A stretch of DNA of 64,000 nt from the NCBI RefSeq assembly GCF_003334785.1, contig NZ_QOWV01000014.1; one strand, written 5' to 3'. This DNA is from Escherichia coli (GTDB taxonomy: Bacteria > Pseudomonadota > Gammaproteobacteria > Enterobacterales > Enterobacteriaceae). Of this stretch, positions 13,000 through 21,609 are shown piece by piece. The translations under genes and the position numbers were made by a program. Position 1 is the stretch's first letter, and the number at the start of each line of letters is the position of its first letter. The notes below the pieces were generated by a model, which was not told the origin of the DNA, ran no database searches, and saw only the letters and a list, made by a program, of their open reading frames with translations.

Positions 13000-14670
13000 A
13001 TGGATAATGCAGAACTCGCCATTGGTATCGATCTCGGTACTACCAATAGTTTAATTGCCGTCTGGAAAGACGGTGCCGCGCAATTAATTCCAAATAAGTT
13101 CGGTGAATATTTAACACCATCCATAATTAGCATGGATGAAAATAATCATATTTTAGTCGGAAAACCGGCTGTATCACGGCGTACTTCGCATCCGGATAAA
13201 ACGGCAGCGTTATTTAAACGTGCAATGGGCAGTAATACCAACTGGCGGTTAGGCAGCGACACATTTAACGCGCCAGAACTGTCCTCTTTGGTATTACGCT
13301 CATTAAAAGAAGATGCCGAAGAATTTCTGCAACGTCCGATTAAAGATGTGGTGATCTCCGTTCCGGCTTATTTCAGCGATGAACAACGCAAGCATACCCG
13401 TTTAGCAGCGGAGTTAGCCGGGTTAAATGCGGTACGCTTAATTAATGAACCCACAGCAGCTGCGATGGCGTATGGCCTGCATACCCAACAAAATACCCGT
13501 TCGCTGGTGTTTGATCTCGGTGGCGGCACGTTTGACGTTACGGTGCTTGAGTACGCCACGCCGGTGATTGAAGTTCACGCCTCCGCTGGCGACAACTTTC
13601 TTGGTGGCGAAGATTTTACCCATATGCTGGTCGATGAGGTTTTAAAACGCGCGGATGTCGCCAGGACCACGCTTAACGAGAGTGAACTGGCAGCCTTGTA
13701 CGCCTGTGTGGAAGCGGCAAAATGTAGCAATCAATCGCCATTGCACATTCGCTGGCAGTATCAGGAAGAAACGCGGGAATGCGAATTTTACGAGAACGAA
13801 CTGGAAGATTTGTGGTTGCCGCTGCTCAATCGCTTGCGAGTGCCGATTGAACAGGCGTTGCGCGATGCGCGTCTGAAGCCGAGTCAAATCGACAGTCTGG
13901 TGCTGGTTGGCGGCGCGTCACAAATGCCGCTGGTGCAGCGAATCGCCGTGCGTCTGTTTGGCAAATTACCGTATCAAAGTTACGATCCGAGCACCATTGT
14001 CGCGCTGGGCGCAGCAATCCAGGCCGCCTGCCGCTTACGCAGTGAAGATATTGAAGAGGTAATCCTCACTGATATTTGCCCTTACTCGTTGGGCGTTGAA
14101 GTTAACCGCCAGGGCGTTTCCGGCATTTTCTCGCCGATTATTGAACGAAACACCACTGTGCCCGTGTCGCGTGTAGAAACTTATTCAACCATGCACCCGG
14201 AACAGGATTCAATTACGGTTAACGTCTATCAGGGAGAAAACCACAAAGTTAAAAACAACATTCTGGTGGAATCCTTCGATGTGCCGTTGAAGAAAACCGG
14301 GGCTTATCAGTCGATTGATATTCGCTTTAGTTATGATATCAACGGGTTGCTTGAAGTTGACGTGCTTCTGGAAGACGGCAGCGTTAAGTCCAGAGTGATT
14401 AACCACAGCCCGGTAACATTGAGCGCGCAGCAGATTGAAGAGAGTCGGACGCGGTTATCCGCATTGAAAATTTATCCGCGCGATATGCTCATCAATCGCA
14501 CCTTTAAAGCCAAACTGGAAGAGTTGTGGGCGCGGGCGCTGGGTGACGAGCGAGAAGAGATCGGCCGGGTGATCACCGATTTTGATGCGGCGTTGCAGTC
14601 AAACGATATGGCCCGCGTGGATGAAGTTCGGCGGCGGGCGAGCGATTATTTAGCCATTGAGATCCCATAA
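13000..14670 (+). CDS. hscC: Hsp70-family chaperone Hsc62
   Basis: 556-aa ORF with Hsp70 ATPase signatures (IGIDLGTTNS, DLGGGTFD); shorter than DnaK. Confidence 0.9.
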   Translation: MDNAELAIGIDLGTTNSLIAVWKDGAAQLIPNKFGEYLTPSIISMDENNHILVGKPAVSRRTSHPDKTAALFKRAMGSNTNWRLGSDTFNAPELSSLVLRSLKEDAEEFLQRPIKDVVISVPAYFSDEQRKHTRLAAELAGLNAVRLINEPTAAAMAYGLHTQQNTRSLVFDLGGGTFDVTVLEYATPVIEVHASAGDNFLGGEDFTHMLVDEVLKRADVARTTLNESELAALYACVEAAKCSNQSPLHIRWQYQEETRECEFYENELEDLWLPLLNRLRVPIEQALRDARLKPSQIDSLVLVGGASQMPLVQRIAVRLFGKLPYQSYDPSTIVALGAAIQAACRLRSEDIEEVILTDICPYSLGVEVNRQGVSGIFSPIIERNTTVPVSRVETYSTMHPEQDSITVNVYQGENHKVKNNILVESFDVPLKKTGAYQSIDIRFSYDINGLLEVDVLLEDGSVKSRVINHSPVTLSAQQIEESRTRLSALKIYPRDMLINRTFKAKLEELWARALGDEREEIGRVITDFDAALQSNDMARVDEVRRRASDYLAIEIP

Positions 14671-14673
14671 ACA

Positions 14674-14716
14674 CGGCTGCCGGATGCGGCGTAAACGCTG
14701 CATCCGGCATCGGCGC
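14674..14716. repeat. REP-type palindrome between the convergent hscC and djlC
   Basis: GCTGCCGGATGCGGCGTAAACGCTGCATCCGGCATCGGCG. Confidence 0.55.
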
Positions 14717-14729
14717 AAAAAACACATCG

Positions 14730-16181
14730 TCAGCTAAACAACATCGCGATTTTGCCGAGAGCATAACCTATCACCAGCACCGTTAAACTGATTTTGATAA
14801 TGCTGGTAATGCTCTGTGGTTTTTCACCCTCATCATTTTTTTCTTCATGATTTTCAGGTGTTGGCTCATCGACATCTTCATCCTCCGGCTCGAGTTTCAC
14901 TTTCGTCAAAAGCATCCGGGTGACAATGGCCTCTAATGGATGAGCATCTCCGCCTTCCAGCCTTGTATTAAGACGGGCCAGCATCTCTTGTTTCGGAAAC
15001 GCTTCAAGTACTACCTGTTCCGCTACCCGATACAAATCCAGGAACGGTGAATCTTGCTCTGTCTCGCTACCGACTCTCGATTTCCACCACGCCCATGCTT
15101 TGCGCTTGAAGAATAACGACTCAATAAACGATTGACCTAACGGCGATAATTTTCCGCTATGTAAAATCTCCGCCCATAACAGCCGCGTCCGGGCGCTCTC
15201 ACCAGGAACATATTTCAGCGGTTGACCTTGCGCATCTACCATGCTCCGCGCTTCGATAACCATCACTAATAACGCGAAATAATCCGGGCAATGACGCTTG
15301 CTCCACTGCAACAACAAATTATCAGCTTGTGTAGATGGGTAACTTTCCCAGTACGCGCAGAGATCGGCAAGCAGGCTTTCCCCCTCGCCGCAGTACAAAC
15401 GTTGTGCACACAAGTAATACCGGGCATCTTCGCTTTCTGGTTCTTCCGTTTGCCACTGTTGAGCGACAGGAATGAGTTCCGCCATACCTGTTTGCACCGA
15501 GCTGTACCAGCGCAACAGTTTGCGATGTAACTTTGCATCATCAGGAATTAACCACGGACCTTCCATCGCCAAAAACGCAGTGACATAGTCAGGATGGTAA
15601 CGGCAGCAACGTTCCAGCGCGAAGTAATACTCAACAGTCTGGTTCTGCAACGCAATGGGATATTCCAGAAGGCTAAGGAAATCGAAACAATCACCAGCCT
15701 GAATGGCCTCAAGAAAAGCCTCCCTTTCTTCCTCATCCATTCCTTCGCTGTCATTAAATGAATGCCAGTTCAAACGCTCTGCCAGCAAAGAAGCACAATT
15801 TAATGAAAGATATCGCGCTTCTATGGCGATTGCACACAGCGGCCAGCGTAATTGATCGACATCCTCCATGTTCCAGGTATTTAATTGCTGAATAAATTTC
15901 TGCCAGGCGGAAGGCTGAAAACGATCACTTTCTGAATCCAGTAATGTCCTGAATGCACGTAGTATTTCATGTTCAGCGGCAGCATCTTTTTCTTCATCAT
16001 CTGCTTCCTCGACAGGATTTACCGCCAGTCGCAGGGCCTCTTCATAGGCCTGGCGTAATGCTTTAAACCCTTGCGGATCGGTTTCGGGATGACACAACGG
16101 TAAGCGAGCAAGATAAGCCTGGCGGATAATGTCTATTTGCGTCGTGCTTTCAATTTCGAGGATTTGCCAACATGTTTTCAT
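14730..16181 (-). CDS. djlC: Tail-anchored J-domain co-chaperone (Hsc56)
   Basis: 483-aa ORF with an N-terminal J-like domain (ILEIE...[21 protein letters not shown]) and a hydrophobic C-terminal segment; paralog of the djlB ORF. Confidence 0.85.
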
Positions 16182-16885
16182 AGGTCGCTCACATCCTTAA
16201 GCGTTACCGGGCATTCAGACTGGACAGTTAATGGCTGCCAGGGAAGCGTGGCATAGAAACGATCGCTTCCCGCTGCCAGCTCTTCGAACATACGACTCCC
16301 GGCGCTATCGTATTTGTACAGGGTTAGCGCCTCGCGTAGCGAAGTGTTGTCTTCGCACTGAGAAGATTGCCAGTAGAGACGTCCTAACGAATAGGCGGAA
16401 AAATAGTGCATCCAGCTGTGATAGTAATGGTGAGCTCGTACATAGACGCGCGATTGCAGCCATAAACTCTCTTCTTCCGTCAGCCACTTGTTGAGCACAC
16501 CGACCCGTGACAGAAACCCCATTCGAACATAATCCCAGGCTTTGATTCCCCCTTCCCCACAGCACATAGCGGTTTGGGCAACGAATTGGGTATAAATCAA
16601 CCCTCTCTCCGAGCCACCAGCAATTAATGCTTTCCACTCTTCAGGGGAAGAGCGATGCCATGTCAGATATAAGCCAGCTAAATCATTGGCATGACCATCA
16701 TCAGTCATCTGATAAATAGTCTGAATTAAATCATCACGATTATTTATTCCCCAGGATGATGAGAGCTCGAATTCTTTTATCCCAGTATACATTTTTGGCG
16801 AGTCATGCGCGGGTTTGCAACCCTGATTAAGTATTTCCATGGGCGCAGAAAGCGCAAAAAGAAGATATTGTTCTTCCTTATTCAT
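16178..16885 (-). CDS. ybeU: DUF1266-family protein
   Basis: 235-aa ORF, paralogous to the ybeR ORF with a shared [20 protein letters not shown] block; ATGA overlap with djlC. Confidence 0.8.
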
Positions 16886-16986
16886 TTGTTAATAATCCCT
16901 TAAGTGCATTAACTGACTACTTTTTTATTATTGATGAGTATAAACTTGACGCTTTCAAAATAAAAAGAAAATCGAAGCATTCACAC

Positions 16987-17541
16987 ATGAATAAAAAATT
17001 AATGTATATATTCGCAATTTTTATAGTTGCAGCAATTACCTGTATTAGCCAACCCAAGAAAACGACGTTGCGTGATAAAGCCATGGTGAATTATGCCTTT
17101 GATTATTTAAGCTCACCGGGCAGTCTTCCATTCACCACGGCAGCCACGGAGCTTTCCGCGATTCATGGTCACTCAACGTCGCAATATCGCCTTGGAGAAT
17201 TTTATCTTCATGGTAGCGACGGTAAACCACTGGATTATACACAGGCGAGATACTGGTATGAGCAATCAGCGGAACAGGAAAATCCACGCGCGCAAAGTAA
17301 ACTGGGGTGGATCTACCTCAAAGGTCTGGGGGTCAAACCCGACACCCGTAAAGCAATTCTCTGGTATAAGGAAGCAGCTGAACAAGGGTATGCTCATGCT
17401 CAATATACTTTAGGTTTGATCTACAGAAATGGCTCAGGTATTAATGTTAACCATTATGAATCTCAAAAATGGTTAAAACTGGCCGCCAAACAACATTACA
17501 AAAATGCGGAAAGATTACTTGCCGGGCTTCCCGCACATTAA
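16987..17541 (+). CDS. ybeT: Sel1-repeat protein with N-terminal signal peptide
   Basis: 184-aa ORF with a hydrophobic N-terminus and Sel1-like repeats ([16 protein letters not shown]..., [15 protein letters not shown]...). Confidence 0.8.
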
Positions 17542-17550
17542 CGTCGACTG

Positions 17551-18978
17551 TCACCCGAACAGATGGAGTATTTTCCCTATCAAACCAGCAAAGATAAAAA
17601 TATAGAAAATAATTTTAATGATGCCCAGACAGCCTGGCCCACCATCGTCAACGGGCATTGGCTGCGGTTGCGGCTCCGGTTCAACAGTTTGCTTCTCGGT
17701 AAAATTCGCCGCCTGAATTAATAATCGACGAATAATTAATGCTTCCAGTGGACAACGATTTTCTGCATCAAGGCGGCTCACAATCGGCATTAATGATTCT
17801 TCTGTAGGTTGGCAGGCCTGCACTAATTGTTTGGCAACTAGATATAATGGCCATAAGGTATGTTCTGTATCACGCGTGAGTGAGATCCGCGGCTTACGTC
17901 CTTTGTGCAAAACCATCTCGACCAGTGAACGCCCCAGCGCAGAGAGTTTTTCATCGCTGAGTATTTCGTATAAATGAAAACGCGTACGGGCGCTGTCGCC
18001 GGGGACATAAAGTAGCGGTTTTCCCTGATCGTTAACCAGATCACGCGCTTCAATCATCATCACCAGTAATGGGTAATAATCGACCCGATGCTGACGGCAC
18101 CATTGCAACATTAAAGCATCCGCCTGGGTGGAGGGATACTCGCGCCAGTAGTCACAAAGTTCTGCCAACAGGCTTTCGCCTTCTCCACAATAGACGCGTT
18201 GCGCGTATTCATAATAAGGCGCATCTTCATTATCAGGTTCAGTTTCCCGCCATGACTGGGCGTAATCCAGAAGTTCGGGGATATCCAGGCGACCTGCGCT
18301 ATACCAGCGGAGTAAATTTCTGTGCAGTTTTGCATCATCGGGGATAATCACTGCGCGATGTTGCGCTAAATACAATGTCAGCCATTGTGGATGCGATGAC
18401 CAAATCCGAGCGAACATTTGGTAAAAATCGATGGTGTCATTTTGCACGGCAACGGGCAGATGCAGAATGGTCTGGAAGTTAAAAACATTCCCCTTCGCAA
18501 TGGCATATAAAAAGGATTCCAGTTCTTCTTCGTCTATTTCCCCGGTATTTTCCTCCTGTAACCACCGCAATCTTTCTGCTAATAACACCACGCACTCGAA
18601 GGATAAATGGGCAGTGTTCATGGCGATTGTGCACAGCGACCAGCGTAATTCATCAATCTCCTCCATCGAGCAATAATTTAATTGCTGAATGAATCGCTGC
18701 CAGGCGGAGGGCAGAAAACGTTCACTATCAGAGGCAAGTAACGCACGAAAGGCGAGCAGAATTTCATGTTCTGCTACCTCATATTCTTCTGGTTGCCAAA
18801 CAGATTTAGCAGGCGACTGCGCAATCCGTAGCGCCTCCTCATACGCCTGACGAAGTTGTTTAAAACCCTGCGGATCGGTTTCTGGATGAAAGGACGGTAA
18901 CAGCGCCAGATAAGCGCGGCGGATAATATCGACGTCAGTCGTTTCCTCTATATCGAGGATCTTCCAGCAATTTTTCAT
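17551..18978 (-). CDS. djlB: Tail-anchored J-domain co-chaperone
   Basis: 475-aa ORF paralogous to djlC ([38 protein letters not shown]...), with a C-terminal hydrophobic segment. Confidence 0.85.
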
Positions 18979-19682
18979 AGGTCGCTCATATCCTTAAGCG
19001 TTTCCGGGCATGCAGAATAGTAAGCCAATGGTTGCCAGGACAAGGTAGGGTAATACGCATCATCACTGGCAAATAATTGATAAAACATATCATTGCCGGA
19101 ATCGTCGTATTCTTTACGCGCTAAGAATTCGCGTAATAAAGGCAGATGATCATCTTCGGGAGACTGCCAATATTGCCGACCAAAGGTATAACCGGCAAAG
19201 TATTGCCGCCAGTTACTATAATAACGTAGAGCCCGTAGATGAATGCGCGACTGGATCCATAGACTTTCTTCTTCGCTCAACCAGTTATTAAGTACGCCCA
19301 TTCGGCTTAAAAAACCCATCCGGACATAATCCCAGGCTTTGATTCCCCCTTCGCCACAGCATTCGGCGGTGCTGGCGACAAATTGCGCATAAGCCTGACC
19401 TTGCTCATTTAGTTCAGCAAGATAGTCACGCCATTCACATGGCGAATAACGAAACCAGCGGTGATAAAACCCTGCCAACCGAGCGGCATGACCGTTATCG
19501 ATCATTCGGTGAATTGTGCGCAGCAGGTCATCACGGTCATCAATTCCCCATGAGGAAGAAAGGTCAAAAAAGCATGTACCTAAATACATTTTGGGTGATG
19601 AATGCGAAGGTAAACAGCATTCATTGCGTATTTCCATCGGAGTGGAAAGTGCAAACAATATTTTTTGCGACTCCATGTCCAT
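18975..19682 (-). CDS. ybeR: DUF1266-family protein
   Basis: 235-aa ORF paralogous to ybeU; ATGA overlap with djlB. Confidence 0.8.
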
Positions 19683-19845
19683 ATAATTTATCCTTAAATA
19701 TTCATTAAATGAATATTAGCCGCATTGCGAGGCTCGTTTATTTATACTTTTCTGACGCGACATAATACGCATAAAATAAGGCTTACGCAAAAATGGAACA
19801 CATAAAAATATAATATGTTTTATCTGCAACCATAAGGAAATGATA

Positions 19846-20823
19846 ATGATTTTCACGTCAAGTTGCTGCGATAATTTATCAATAGATGAGATTATCGAAC
19901 GTGCTGAAAAAGGCGATTGCGAGGCTCAATATATTGTTGGGTTTTATTATAATCGCGATAGCGCAATTGATTCTCCGGACGACGAAAAAGCCTTTTACTG
20001 GCTGAAGCTGGCCGCTGAGCAAGGTCATTGTGAAGCACAGTATTCCTTAGGGCAAAAGTATACCGAGGATAAAAGCCGTCATAAAGATAATGAGCAAGCC
20101 ATCTTCTGGCTGAAAAAAGCTGCCCTACAAGGCCATACTTTCGCTTCCAACGCCCTTGGCTGGACACTGGATCGTGGAGAAGCCCCCAATTATAAAGAAG
20201 CGGTTGTCTGGTATCAGATAGCCGCGGAGAGCGGAATGTCTTATGCGCAAAATAATCTTGGGTGGATGTACAGAAATGGCAACGGAGTCGCAAAAGACTA
20301 TGCGCTGGCATTTTTCTGGTACAAACAAGCTGCATTACAAGGCCATAGTGACGCGCAAAACAATCTGGCCGATCTTTATGAAGACGGAAAAGGCGTTGCT
20401 CAAAACAAGACACTCGCCGCATTCTGGTATTTGAAAAGCGCACAGCAGGGTAATCGGCACGCCCAGTTTCAAATTGCATGGGATTATAACGCTGGCGAAG
20501 GGGTGGACCAGGACTATAAGCAAGCGATGTACTGGTATCTGAAGGCTGCCGCTCAGGGGAGCGTCGGCGCTTACGTCAACATCGGTTATATGTATAAACA
20601 CGGACAAGGCGTTGAGAAAGATTATCAGGCTGCCTTTGAATGGTTTACGAAAGCCGCTGAATGCAATGACGCCACTGCCTGGTATAACCTGGCCATTATG
20701 TATCACTACGGAGAAGGAAGACCTGTCGATCTCCGACAGGCTCTCGACCTGTATCGTAAAGTTCAGTCATCCGGAACCAGAGATGTCAGTCAGGAAATTC
20801 GTGAGACTGAAGATTTACTGTAG
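19846..20823 (+). CDS. ybeQ: Sel1-repeat protein, apparently cytoplasmic
   Basis: About seven Sel1-like repeats (AQY.LG..Y..G.GV..D); no N-terminal signal peptide. The start is uncertain (ATG at 19840 or 19846). Confidence 0.8.
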   Translation: MIFTSSCCDNLSIDEIIERAEKGDCEAQYIVGFYYNRDSAIDSPDDEKAFYWLKLAAEQGHCEAQYSLGQKYTEDKSRHKDNEQAIFWLKKAALQGHTFASNALGWTLDRGEAPNYKEAVVWYQIAAESGMSYAQNNLGWMYRNGNGVAKDYALAFFWYKQAALQGHSDAQNNLADLYEDGKGVAQNKTLAAFWYLKSAQQGNRHAQFQIAWDYNAGEGVDQDYKQAMYWYLKAAAQGSVGAYVNIGYMYKHGQGVEKDYQAAFEWFTKAAECNDATAWYNLAIMYHYGEGRPVDLRQALDLYRKVQSSGTRDVSQEIRETEDLL

Positions 20824-20833
20824 AGATAAAAAC

Positions 20834-20875
20834 AAGGGCCGGGGAATTTCATTCGGCCCATATTCTCTTTATTGC
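20834..20875 (+). terminator. Candidate intrinsic terminator between the convergent ybeQ and ybeL
   Basis: Hairpin GGGCCG-GGGAATTTCATT-CGGCCC followed by a T-rich tract. Confidence 0.5.
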
Positions 20876-20892
20876 TGTGCGAAATCAGACTA

Positions 20893-21375
20893 TTACGGCT
20901 CAAACGGGCGTCTCTGGAACTGGTCATGACCACATTTCGGGCATAGCGTCAGCACTTCCGGTGTGTAGATCGGGAGATGGAAGTGACATTTCTCGCAGAC
21001 CAGATTTCCCAGCCCGACCACTTCTCCGCTGTGATAAACCCCATGATGATTGAGGTCCTGGAAAACTTCGCGCCATTCAAGCTGCGTTTTATCGGTGATG
21101 TCTGCCAGCTCCTGCCACAAGCTTTCTTTAATCACCCGCATAAAGACGCTGTCAGATTCTTCTTTCAGGCTCTCTTCATAGCTCATGGCGAACTCTTCCA
21201 GGTCACGTCTGACAGCTCGCGTCAGCTCATCGACCTCGGTTCGCGTTAACTCCCCTGTTTTTATTACGCGCTCGCGCGCCTGTTCCACCAGTGCGTCGAT
21301 ATCACGTTCGCCATTGCGCAGGCGTTCGCTCAGTGACGCAACCAGTTCACGGTAATATTGAGCAACCTTGTTCAT
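20893..21375 (-). CDS. ybeL: DUF1451 zinc-ribbon-containing protein
   Basis: 160-aa ORF with C-terminal CxxC...CxxC (CEKCHFH...CPKCGH). Confidence 0.8.
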   Translation of the reverse strand: MNKVAQYYRELVASLSERLRNGERDIDALVEQARERVIKTGELTRTEVDELTRAVRRDLEEFAMSYEESLKEESDSVFMRVIKESLWQELADITDKTQLEWREVFQDLNHHGVYHSGEVVGLGNLVCEKCHFHLPIYTPEVLTLCPKCGHDQFQRRPFEP

Positions 21376-21609
21376 CGTTTCATCTCCCGGGTCGTTAACT
21401 GACTATAATAATAGACGTTCTTTGTTCCTTGCTTTGCTAATACGCCCACAAACTCTGTAAATTAATGTATGAATAATCCGGGCATCATTTCAACGTCGAG
21501 TGCGCGAAAGGCTGTTTTGACGCGGACGTTTGGGCTATGCTATGCGGATCTGAAAAACCACCTCAACGCTACATTTGTAGCCGTATTGAAAACAGGACCA
21601 CTGGCTGCC

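Follow-up and report, generated by a model that had tools for sequence, protein, structure and literature searches.

YbeT and YbeQ, two Sel1-repeat proteins encoded in the hscC region of Escherichia coli, differ at their N-termini in every orthologue examined. The difference is real, yet ordinary. We propose that YbeT is a bitopic inner-membrane protein whose first ~21 residues (MNKK and a 17-residue hydrophobic helix) would serve as an uncleaved signal anchor of the Sec/SRP type, oriented N-in/C-out, and that YbeQ, likewise built of Sel1 repeats, would be soluble in the cytoplasm. The two genes are lineage-variable, H-NS-silenced accessories, each divergent from an operon that encodes a DUF1266 protein and a tail-anchored J-protein serving HscC. 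Judged from the sequence, the chance that this reading holds in all its parts is about even.

The locus and its two Sel1-repeat genes

The window, that is, the whole stretch of 64,000 nucleotides that was analysed, holds the E. coli hscC–djlC–ybeU, ybeT, djlB–ybeR and ybeQ locus, with 100% identity to E. coli C. Its relevant features are as follows:

13000–14670, plus strand: hscC, encoding a specialised Hsp70 of the cytoplasm that works with DjlC and presumably also with DjlB (PMC8215388)
14730–16181, minus strand: djlC, tail-anchored J-domain co-chaperone of HscC
16178–16885, minus strand: ybeU, encoding a cytoplasmic DUF1266 protein; leads the ybeU-djlC operon and is divergent from ybeT
16987–17541, plus strand: ybeT coding sequence, 184 aa (open reading frame and PGAP annotation); putative N-terminal anchor, short hinge and Sel1-like repeat (SLR) solenoid
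17551–18978, minus strand: djlB, paralogous to djlC at 49% identity; its product has a hydrophobic tail at the C-terminus
18975–19682, minus strand: ybeR, DUF1266, paralogous to ybeU at 59% identity; transcribed divergently from ybeQ
19834–19838, plus strand: AAGGA Shine-Dalgarno sequence of ybeQ
19846–20823, plus strand: ybeQ coding sequence from the PGAP start, 325 aa, 7–8 Sel1 repeats, with neither a signal nor a transmembrane segment

The genes djlB and ybeT are convergent, with 9 nt between their stops. A promoter and terminator scan of positions 16700–20000 returned fewer promoter-like sites than shuffled sequence and nothing usable. The locus is often decayed. A full-text search for ybeT, ybeQ and DUF1266 gave incidental mentions only: a TraDIS match without knockout confirmation, regulation by H-NS and SlyA, and a coral scaffold carrying a "YbeQ" label that is unrelated. 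YbeT, YbeQ, DjlB, DjlC and HscC were not found in the supplements of the E. coli localisation and proteome studies searched, in the case of YbeT and YbeQ probably because the locus is silenced by H-NS (PMC7582179, PMC3946193).

Both YbeT and YbeQ belong to the SLR family (PF08238). Pfam recognised three significant Sel1 repeats in YbeT (residues 64–169, E 1e-11 to 3e-5) and seven in YbeQ at E ≤ 4e-4, plus one weaker. The AF2 model of YbeT shows an alpha/alpha hairpin solenoid and has a mean pLDDT of 85.7, exceeding 90 from residue 60 (over residues 60–180), and when it was compared with the PDB by Foldseek the best 30 matches were all SLR proteins; the best of them included LceB, LpnE, EsiB and SEL1L. 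The earlier note on this DNA had called YbeT and YbeQ paralogs. The term is apt at the level of the repeat family only, as the two align at 32–36% identity in many registers, compared with 49% for DjlB/DjlC and 59% for YbeR/YbeU.

The open reading frames lie where that note had placed them (ybeT at 16987–17541, plus strand, 184 aa; end of ybeQ at 20823), with the exception of the ybeQ start, which it had set at 19840, two codons upstream of the likelier start (MIFTSS..., 325 aa). Most likely, ybeQ starts at 19846, because the AAGGA sequence is spaced 7 nt from the ATG at 19846 and only 1 nt from the ATG at 19840, and because it is the second Met that is conserved. No in-frame start was found upstream of 19840, so there is no hidden signal peptide. 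The Hessa score of YbeQ (11.1) is in the range of cytoplasmic proteins, and none of its orthologues has a hydrophobic N-terminus; the claim that YbeQ lacks a signal peptide is thus borne out. The protein has five cysteines, an odd number. On these features, YbeQ should be a soluble cytoplasmic protein.

The N-terminal segment of YbeT

YbeT can be divided into four parts:

16987–16998, plus strand: n-region MNKK, net charge +2, with K/R within positions 2–4 in all orthologues
16999–17049, plus strand: hydrophobic helix L5–S21, a putative signal anchor that holds the non-lipobox Cys19 (Hessa score, AF2, dN/dS)
17050–17079, plus strand: hinge and basic cluster directly after the helix, with AF2 pLDDT <50 at residues 21–26
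17068–17523, plus strand: helical solenoid, residues 28–179, with two capping helices, three Sel1 repeats and a C-terminal helix (AF2)

The uncharged run spans residues 5–23 and its hydrophobic stretch 16–17 residues; in the AF2 model, residues 3–20 (18 residues) form an isolated helix. On the Hessa scale, the 17-residue sum of YbeT is −2.36, which ranks fourth among the 48 annotated proteins of the region and puts the segment alongside transmembrane helices of the same region, those of DpiB, MrdB, MrdA and TatE. All cleavable signal peptides within the same 50 kb are less hydrophobic. The hydrophobic, signal-like segment that had been reported at the start of YbeT is therefore confirmed. In the orthologues, Tyr and Phe flank both of its ends.

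The segment is translated and under purifying selection, because dN/dS of codons 1–23 is 0.11–0.19 in orthologues compared with E. coli, and the helix is retained down to 37–52% identity (P0188, P0189, P0203). This bears on where translation begins. Some database entries (P0012, P0015) start YbeT at Met33 (MVNYAFDY...), which would yield a 152-aa cytoplasmic protein lacking the hydrophobic N-terminus, and the Shine-Dalgarno sequence before 16987 is weak (GAAG, 9 nt upstream). However, the ATG at 16987 and codons 1–32 are conserved (dN/dS 0.16–0.21 compared with E. coli), Met33 itself is not conserved in P0188, and the helix persists at the low identities given above, which makes a start at Met33 highly improbable. 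A 168-aa variant starting with "MTCISQ" (P0004, 444 sequences) was rejected as an assembly artefact, since its calls start 10 nt from the contig end.

A second possibility is that YbeT is a lipoprotein, with Cys19 as the acylated residue and signal peptidase II as the processing enzyme. Cys19 does follow the hydrophobic stretch, and Escherichia-like orthologues conserve the ITC. However, the residues up to the cysteine read AITC; with Thr in position −1 and Ala in position −3, they fail both PROSITE PS51257 and the pattern [LVI][ASTVI][GAS]C, a rule that recovered LptE and RlpA only when it was applied to all open reading frames of the 64 kb window. Moreover, the cysteine is missing in the distant orthologues P0188, P0189 and P0203, which have none in their N-terminal 30 residues and yet keep the helix. 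The description of Cys19 as lying in a lipobox-like position thus falls, and we regard a lipoprotein as almost certainly the wrong reading.

More has to be said of a cleavable Sec signal peptide, removed by signal peptidase I, which would leave a soluble periplasmic YbeT as in many bacterial SLR proteins. A positive n-region followed by a hydrophobic h-region is present in YbeT, at the long and very hydrophobic extreme for a signal peptide; at 16–17 residues, the stretch is on the short side for a membrane-spanning helix and overlaps the lengths of signal-peptide h-regions. The sequence can plausibly be parsed into n-, h- and c-regions (MNKK ... ITCIS↓QP, where Cys occupies −3 and Ser −1), and C-I-S↓Q of E. 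coli is a permissible though poor site. In addition, many characterised bacterial SLR proteins are exported, and the sub-threshold NCBIfam matches are the Sel1-repeat proteins MerG, AlgK, MotX and ExoR. Against cleavage, the residues before Q/N22 are CIS, CFS, CIF, YVI, FYY and YII, with no small −3/−1 pair conserved, and the sole alternative site in P0203 has Pro at +1. YbeT also has neither a helix breaker nor a polar c-region, its segment exceeds all signal peptides of the region in hydrophobicity, and the putative mature protein would carry K at +3 and +4, which is unfavourable for Sec export. We consider a cleavable signal peptide improbable, and because no signal peptidase I site is conserved, an uncleaved anchor appears to be the best reading of the YbeT N-terminus. 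Under it, the 6-residue hinge would keep the small Sel1 solenoid (residues 28–179) near the membrane surface.

Proposed orientation of YbeT in the membrane

The two sides of the helix give conflicting signals in E. coli. Within the 15 residues past the helix lie K24, K25, R29 and K31, for a net charge of +3, so that K and R number two on the N side and four on the C side. By the positive-inside rule, this distribution would place the Sel1 domain in the cytoplasm. The matching flank of TatE, which is cytoplasmic, is also +3, while those of six translocated controls (including GltI, DacA, PagP, RlpA and LptE) range from −2 to +1. Among the YbeT orthologues, the flank past the helix ranges from −1 to +3 overall and is only −1 to +1 in L012, L002, P0188, P0189 and P0203. 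The N-flank is positive throughout (+1 to +3 in all orthologues; n-regions MNKK, MKRK, MKKG and MSNK). Taken over the family, the flank charges favour N-in.

Two membrane proteins of the region illustrate the ambiguity. MrdA (PBP2), a type II signal-anchor protein, resembles YbeT in having one N-terminal hydrophobic helix of similar hydrophobicity (Hessa sums −3.1 for MrdA, −2.4 for YbeT); however, its C-flank is neutral and its N-tail long, while YbeT has an N-tail of +2 and a C-flank of +3. TatE, an N-out anchor, likewise has one N-terminal helix of similar hydrophobicity (Hessa sum −1.2) and shares the C-flank of +3, but its N-tail is uncharged, in contrast to +2 in YbeT. Because it combines an N-tail of +2 with a C-flank of +3, YbeT fits neither pattern cleanly.

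In case of the N-out/C-in orientation, MNKK alone would reach across the membrane, and the Sel1 domain would be held at the cytoplasmic face of the inner membrane beside DjlC, YbeU and HscC, which would make YbeT a membrane-tethered version of YbeQ in the same compartment. The KK..R.K cluster speaks for this orientation, with its net +3 and four K/R compared with two in the N-flank, like TatE and unlike the translocated controls. So does the company that YbeT keeps, as HscC, DjlB, DjlC, YbeU, YbeR and YbeQ are all cytoplasmic or cytoplasm-facing (partly PMC6794478). In another enterobacterium (L022), moreover, a YbeT-type gene fills the slot that ybeQ occupies in E. coli, suggesting functional equivalence, and the ~6-residue hinge would keep the domain at the membrane, where the bulk of DjlC sits. 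However, all orthologues have two to three K/R in the 4-residue N-tail, and translocation of such a tail is strongly disfavoured under the established positive-inside and N-tail rules. In several orthologues, moreover, the C-flank is neutral or acidic, e.g., QSDEEIQRNK in P0189. We therefore hold the N-out/C-in orientation to be possible, if unlikely.

Since the positive N-flank is conserved, N-in/C-out is the most likely orientation of YbeT, with the predicted Sel1 domain on the periplasmic face. The proposal in the earlier note that the two proteins occupy different compartments is partly supported: a membrane-targeted YbeT and a soluble cytoplasmic YbeQ are expected from sequence, whereas the YbeT Sel1 domain may be periplasmic or, given the TatE-like flank of +3 in E. 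coli, cytoplasmic.

Sel1 genes, the HscC system and known parallels

A scan of contigs by peptide patterns gave nine loci, a thin taxonomic coverage. YbeT-type genes adjoin a DUF1266 gene in Escherichia spp., L002 and L022, the last being the locus in which the gene stands at the ybeQ position of E. coli, and YbeQ-type genes adjoin ybeR in Escherichia, Salmonella and Citrobacter. In Salmonella and Citrobacter, ybeT is absent from an otherwise intact locus, and in Klebsiella spallanzanii and Budviciaceae no Sel1 gene adjoins the module. The 900-aa J-proteins of Budviciaceae were considered as carriers of a fused Sel1 domain; none is present, and they have a C-terminal DUF805 membrane domain instead. 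These neighbourhoods support a genomic tie of YbeT and YbeQ to DUF1266–J-protein operons: every DUF1266–djl operon tends to be accompanied by a single divergent Sel1 gene, of the membrane-anchored type in some cases and of the soluble type in others.

It had been suggested that Sel1 adaptors on both sides of the inner membrane would suit membrane-anchored J-proteins. DjlC, which stimulates the ATPase of HscC, is a tail-anchored inner-membrane J-protein, and its tail anchoring has been shown experimentally (PMC8215388, PMC6794478). The hydrophobic C-terminal segment of DjlC comprises residues 464–482 of 483 (window 14736–14792), and the segments of DjlB and DjlC reach within about 1–8 residues of the C-terminus; DjlB and DjlC therefore offer a periplasmic adaptor nothing to hold. 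Nor is a two-sided Sel1 pair a conserved feature, since ybeT is missing in Salmonella and Citrobacter and K. spallanzanii and Budviciaceae have no Sel1 gene there. The idea of adaptors on both sides is accordingly weak. In the papers searched, no role in the HscC system is given to YbeT, YbeQ or DUF1266, and no evidence that YbeT or YbeQ interacts with DjlB, DjlC, DUF1266 or HscC was found. NCBIfam returned far sub-threshold matches to other Sel1 proteins only, and none for DjlB, DjlC or DUF1266. A role in anti-phage defence was also considered and rejected, as the only PADLOC signal was repeat noise against PtuA, below the threshold.

Of the Hsp70 systems of E. coli, that of HscC, DjlB and DjlC is the least understood. 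Cadmium and UV sensitivity have been reported for hscC and djlB djlC deletions, with no known client (PMC8215388). If the Sel1 neighbours were adaptors of HscC, their location would mark the site of the client, i.e., the cytosol for YbeQ and the membrane or periplasm for YbeT, and the comparative pattern of one divergent Sel1 gene per DUF1266–djl operon offers a concrete starting point. Any role of the Sel1 proteins would be accessory, because the locus is silenced by H-NS and often decayed, and because related genera lack one Sel1 gene or both. One may further speculate that YbeT-type and YbeQ-type proteins are interchangeable adaptors that specify the client or location of DUF1266–DjlB/C–HscC modules, and that a periplasmic YbeT Sel1 domain couples envelope events to HscC via helix contacts with the DjlC tail anchor, as a bacterial counterpart of SEL1L/Hrd3–Hrd1; we think this quite improbable.

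Relative to the HscC–DjlB/DjlC system itself, ybeT and ybeQ lie inside the locus and each diverges from a DUF1266–djl operon, an arrangement that recurs in other Enterobacterales; they are nevertheless dispensable parts, absent in K. spallanzanii and Budviciaceae. Known SLR proteins (E. coli EsiB/c5321, Legionella LpnE and LceB, Helicobacter HcpB/HcpC) belong to the same PF08238 family, with E down to 1e-11, and the AF2 model of YbeT superposes on them (Foldseek E ~1e-7, 28–40% identity). EsiB, LpnE, LceB and HcpB/HcpC act as protein-binding solenoids and are secreted or periplasmic, whereas YbeQ has no export signal and YbeT has ~4.5 hairpins behind an apparently uncleaved anchor. The Cys pairs found in Hcp proteins have no counterpart in the YbeT Sel1 domain. 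To our knowledge, none of these SLR proteins is tied to an Hsp70/J-protein operon.

The layout of YbeT is analogous to that of eukaryotic SEL1L/Hrd3 of Hrd1 ERAD, where an SLR solenoid on one transmembrane helix stands by a membrane quality-control machine that uses an Hsp70. The likeness is one of layout only, with a shared repeat fold and with SEL1L structures among the Foldseek matches of YbeT. SEL1L is large, C-terminally anchored and lumenal, while YbeT is small and would be anchored at its N-terminus.

The N-terminal segment of YbeT

The two Sel1-like repeat (SLR) proteins of the locus are encoded by the following genes:

16987-17541, plus strand: ybeT, 184 aa
19846-20823, plus strand: ybeQ, 325 aa from its probable start

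Hydrophobicity was computed for all 48 annotated proteins in the region as a 17-residue sum on the Hessa biological scale. YbeT scored −2.36 (rank 4/48) and grouped with the DpiB, MrdB, MrdA and TatE transmembrane helices; the cleavable signal peptides in the sample were all less hydrophobic (LptE −0.7, DacA 2.4, PagP 3.0, RlpA 3.3, GltI 4.7). Both the start codon (ATG, 16987) and the peptide that it opens are shared by four further Escherichia lineages and by an orthologue of 71% identity. Codons 1-23 had dN/dS values of 0.11 and 0.19 against E. coli, with synonymous sites near saturation and with the dN/dS from L003 versus L002 (two of the compared loci) being a small, noisy comparison. When residues 1-79 were used as the query, an exhaustive HMMER search returned more orthologues, at 37-52% identity, and the distant ones retain a start rich in K/R and a hydrophobic stretch of 17 residues with aromatics at either end: MSNKLLYICTSLILTTLFYYNRPAEK, MKKGYLYIAAIVLFTPIFYVIQSDEE and MNKKIIYALSTLAVATLTYIIQSPET. 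The signal-like start described in the earlier note is real.

A group of 444 database "YbeT" sequences has 168 aa and starts with MTCISQ. Their contigs break 10 nt upstream, within the 5' end of ybeT (L007, L008, position 11), which suggests a repeat or IS insertion there in one lineage.

The lipobox-like Cys proposed for this segment did not survive scrutiny. With Thr at −1, A-I-T-C matches neither PROSITE PS51257 nor the classic [LVI][ASTVI][GAS]C; the same rule, applied to every ORF and start of the 64-kb window, recovered exactly LptE and RlpA, the two known lipoproteins. The Cys is also missing from distant orthologues, and YbeT was rejected as a lipoprotein. For signal peptidase I, E. 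coli YbeT offers a single reasonable site, C-I-S↓Q, a position occupied in orthologues by CIF, YVI, FYY and YII; a helix-breaking or polar c-region is absent. Since the cleavage site is not conserved, such a c-region is lacking and the hydrophobicity is of transmembrane grade, the sequences favour an uncleaved N-terminal anchor.

Orientation of YbeT and location of YbeQ

A positive N-flank is the usual sign of a cytoplasmic N-terminus, and that of YbeT is +2 (+1 to +3 across all orthologues). In E. coli YbeT, the 15 residues past the helix carry K24, K25, R29, K31 and D30, a net +3. This equals the cytoplasmic flank of TatE (+3), unlike the translocated flanks of GltI, DacA, PagP, RlpA, LptE and MrdA (−2 to +1), and makes an N-out/C-in topology, with the Sel1 domain on the cytoplasmic side, a serious rival. 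However, the post-helix flank is −1 to +1 in other orthologues. Because of this and the uniformly positive N-flank, N-in/C-out, with a periplasmic Sel1 domain, is favoured, though only moderately. The E. coli localisation and proteome data searched gave no experimental localisation of YbeT or YbeQ.

YbeQ (Hessa score 11.1) falls among the cytoplasmic proteins, as do YbeU, YbeR and YbeL, and its frame has no start codon 5' of 19840; it was rightly described as lacking a signal peptide. Of the two candidate ATGs, the one at 19846 lies 7 nt from the AAGGA Shine-Dalgarno and the one at 19840 lies 1 nt from it. This spacing, the PGAP start (19846) and conservation of the second Met argue for 19846, so that the MIMIFTSS start is probably two residues too long, which is immaterial.

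Of the proposal that the two paralogs occupy different compartments, the lipobox is lost and the difference in location stands: the two almost certainly differ, YbeT being membrane-bound and YbeQ soluble and cytosolic, and they may lie on opposite sides of the membrane.

Locus organization across lineages

Gene order at 13000-21400 of the window is hscC (+), djlC–ybeU (−), ybeT (+), djlB–ybeR (−), ybeQ (+), ybeL and leuS. Over a 6-kb span the locus shows 100% identity with E. coli C and further strains; the PGAP annotation agrees. DjlB and DjlC share 49% identity and YbeR and YbeU 59%; both pairs are plainly tandem duplicates. YbeT and YbeQ share just 32-36%, in many alternative registers, and this likeness is generic Sel1-repeat similarity. 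Pfam counts 3 Sel1 repeats for YbeT (residues 64-169) and 7-8 for YbeQ.

The stops of ybeT and djlB are convergent and 9 nt apart (17539-17553), leaving no space for a terminator. In rare 244-aa variants (P0001, P0003), the ybeT stop is read through into the djlB antisense strand. GC content is 0.34-0.35 in the divergent intergenic regions 16886-16986 (ybeU/ybeT) and 19683-19845 (ybeR/ybeQ), compared with ~0.48 in flanking genes. Such AT-richness is consistent with reports that H-NS silences the locus and is listed at the ybeQ/ybeR intergenic region, a DUF1266 gene being ~300-fold derepressed in an hns mutant; SlyA-responsive promoters include those of ybeT and ybeU (PMC7582179, PMC3946193, PMC7417354).

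Salmonella and Citrobacter lack ybeT and have the order ybeQ, ybeR-djlB-ybeU-djlC, hscC, with a djlB–ybeU gap of 12-72 nt. The four genes form one co-directional run, with gaps of 12 and 72 nt, in Salmonella (L004, 9001-13305) and Citrobacter enshiensis (L006, 6788-11165). In Escherichia (14730-19682), the oppositely oriented ybeT lies between djlB and ybeU, and the run is divided into two operons. Klebsiella spallanzanii has a single DUF1266–djl module beside hscC and no Sel1 gene. Budviciaceae also lack a Sel1 gene, and have DUF1266 together with a J-protein of 900 aa that carries a DUF805 membrane domain at its end. A metagenomic enterobacterium (L002) carries one hscC, djlC-ybeU, ybeT module at a different chromosomal site; in L022 (DUF1266, YbeT-type, ybeL), the anchored type occupies the E. 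coli ybeQ slot. Among complete E. coli genomes, ybeT is found in 4288/5426 (missing from ~21%) and ybeQ in 4448/5426 (~18%), and some strains show erosion of the locus by IS elements. What holds up robustly is that each DUF1266–djl operon has a single divergent Sel1 gene, of the anchored or the soluble type, and that this gene is often missing; no conserved two-sided Sel1 pair was seen among the lineages compared.

Several individual loci were also recorded. In E. coli YZ22PE106 (L019, 6248-9658), hscC, djlC, ybeU and the greater part of ybeT are gone through a deletion linked to IS1, and djlB is split by ISEc33; in other strains IS1 lies within ybeT (H11) or ybeQ (H23). Escherichia sp. MOD1-EC7003 (L010, 1648-3003) has two added ORFs (93 and 344 aa) between ybeL and ybeQ, with 47% and 25% identity to the N-terminal J-domain and middle part of DjlB/DjlC, respectively; the two resemble a third djl-like gene that has been split. 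A contig end in an assembly labelled Paenibacillus sp. USDA918EY (L014, 8001-8387) is 100% identical to E. coli ybeU, probably through contamination or a chimeric contig. In L015 (8711-11422) and also in L016-L018 (Leminorella, Pragia and Limnobaculum), the DUF1266 gene is followed by that of a ~905-aa J-protein; its C-terminus matches DUF805, a polytopic membrane domain, where DjlB/DjlC have a single tail anchor, and the ~700 residues between J-domain and DUF805 gave no Pfam match.

J-proteins and the Sel1 domain

The canonical J-domain motif is HPD; the J-domains at the N-termini of DjlC (16040-16181) and DjlB (18840-18978) have HPE in its place, and the DnaJ Pfam match of DjlC is marginal (E = 0.036). 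The hydrophobic segment of both proteins ends ~1-8 residues short of the C-terminus, and experiments have established that DjlC sits in the inner membrane by a tail anchor (PMC6794478, PMC8215388). The cytoplasm houses HscC, both DUF1266 proteins and the entire bulk of the J-proteins; a periplasmic adaptor could reach them by transmembrane helix contacts only. An adaptor role for the Sel1 proteins is conjectural, and the anatomy of DjlB/DjlC does not particularly favour it.

The recurrent pairing of a Sel1 gene with a DUF1266–J-protein operon offers a modest, testable lead on the poorly understood HscC system. The AF2 model of YbeT (pLDDT 85.7) has an isolated helix (3-20) and a disordered hinge (21-26), after which come a pair of capping helices and a solenoid modelled with confidence up to residue 179. 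YbeT is an ordinary SLR protein with a probable signal anchor, and the structures nearest its model are the SLR proteins LceB, LpnE, EsiB, SEL1L and HcpC.
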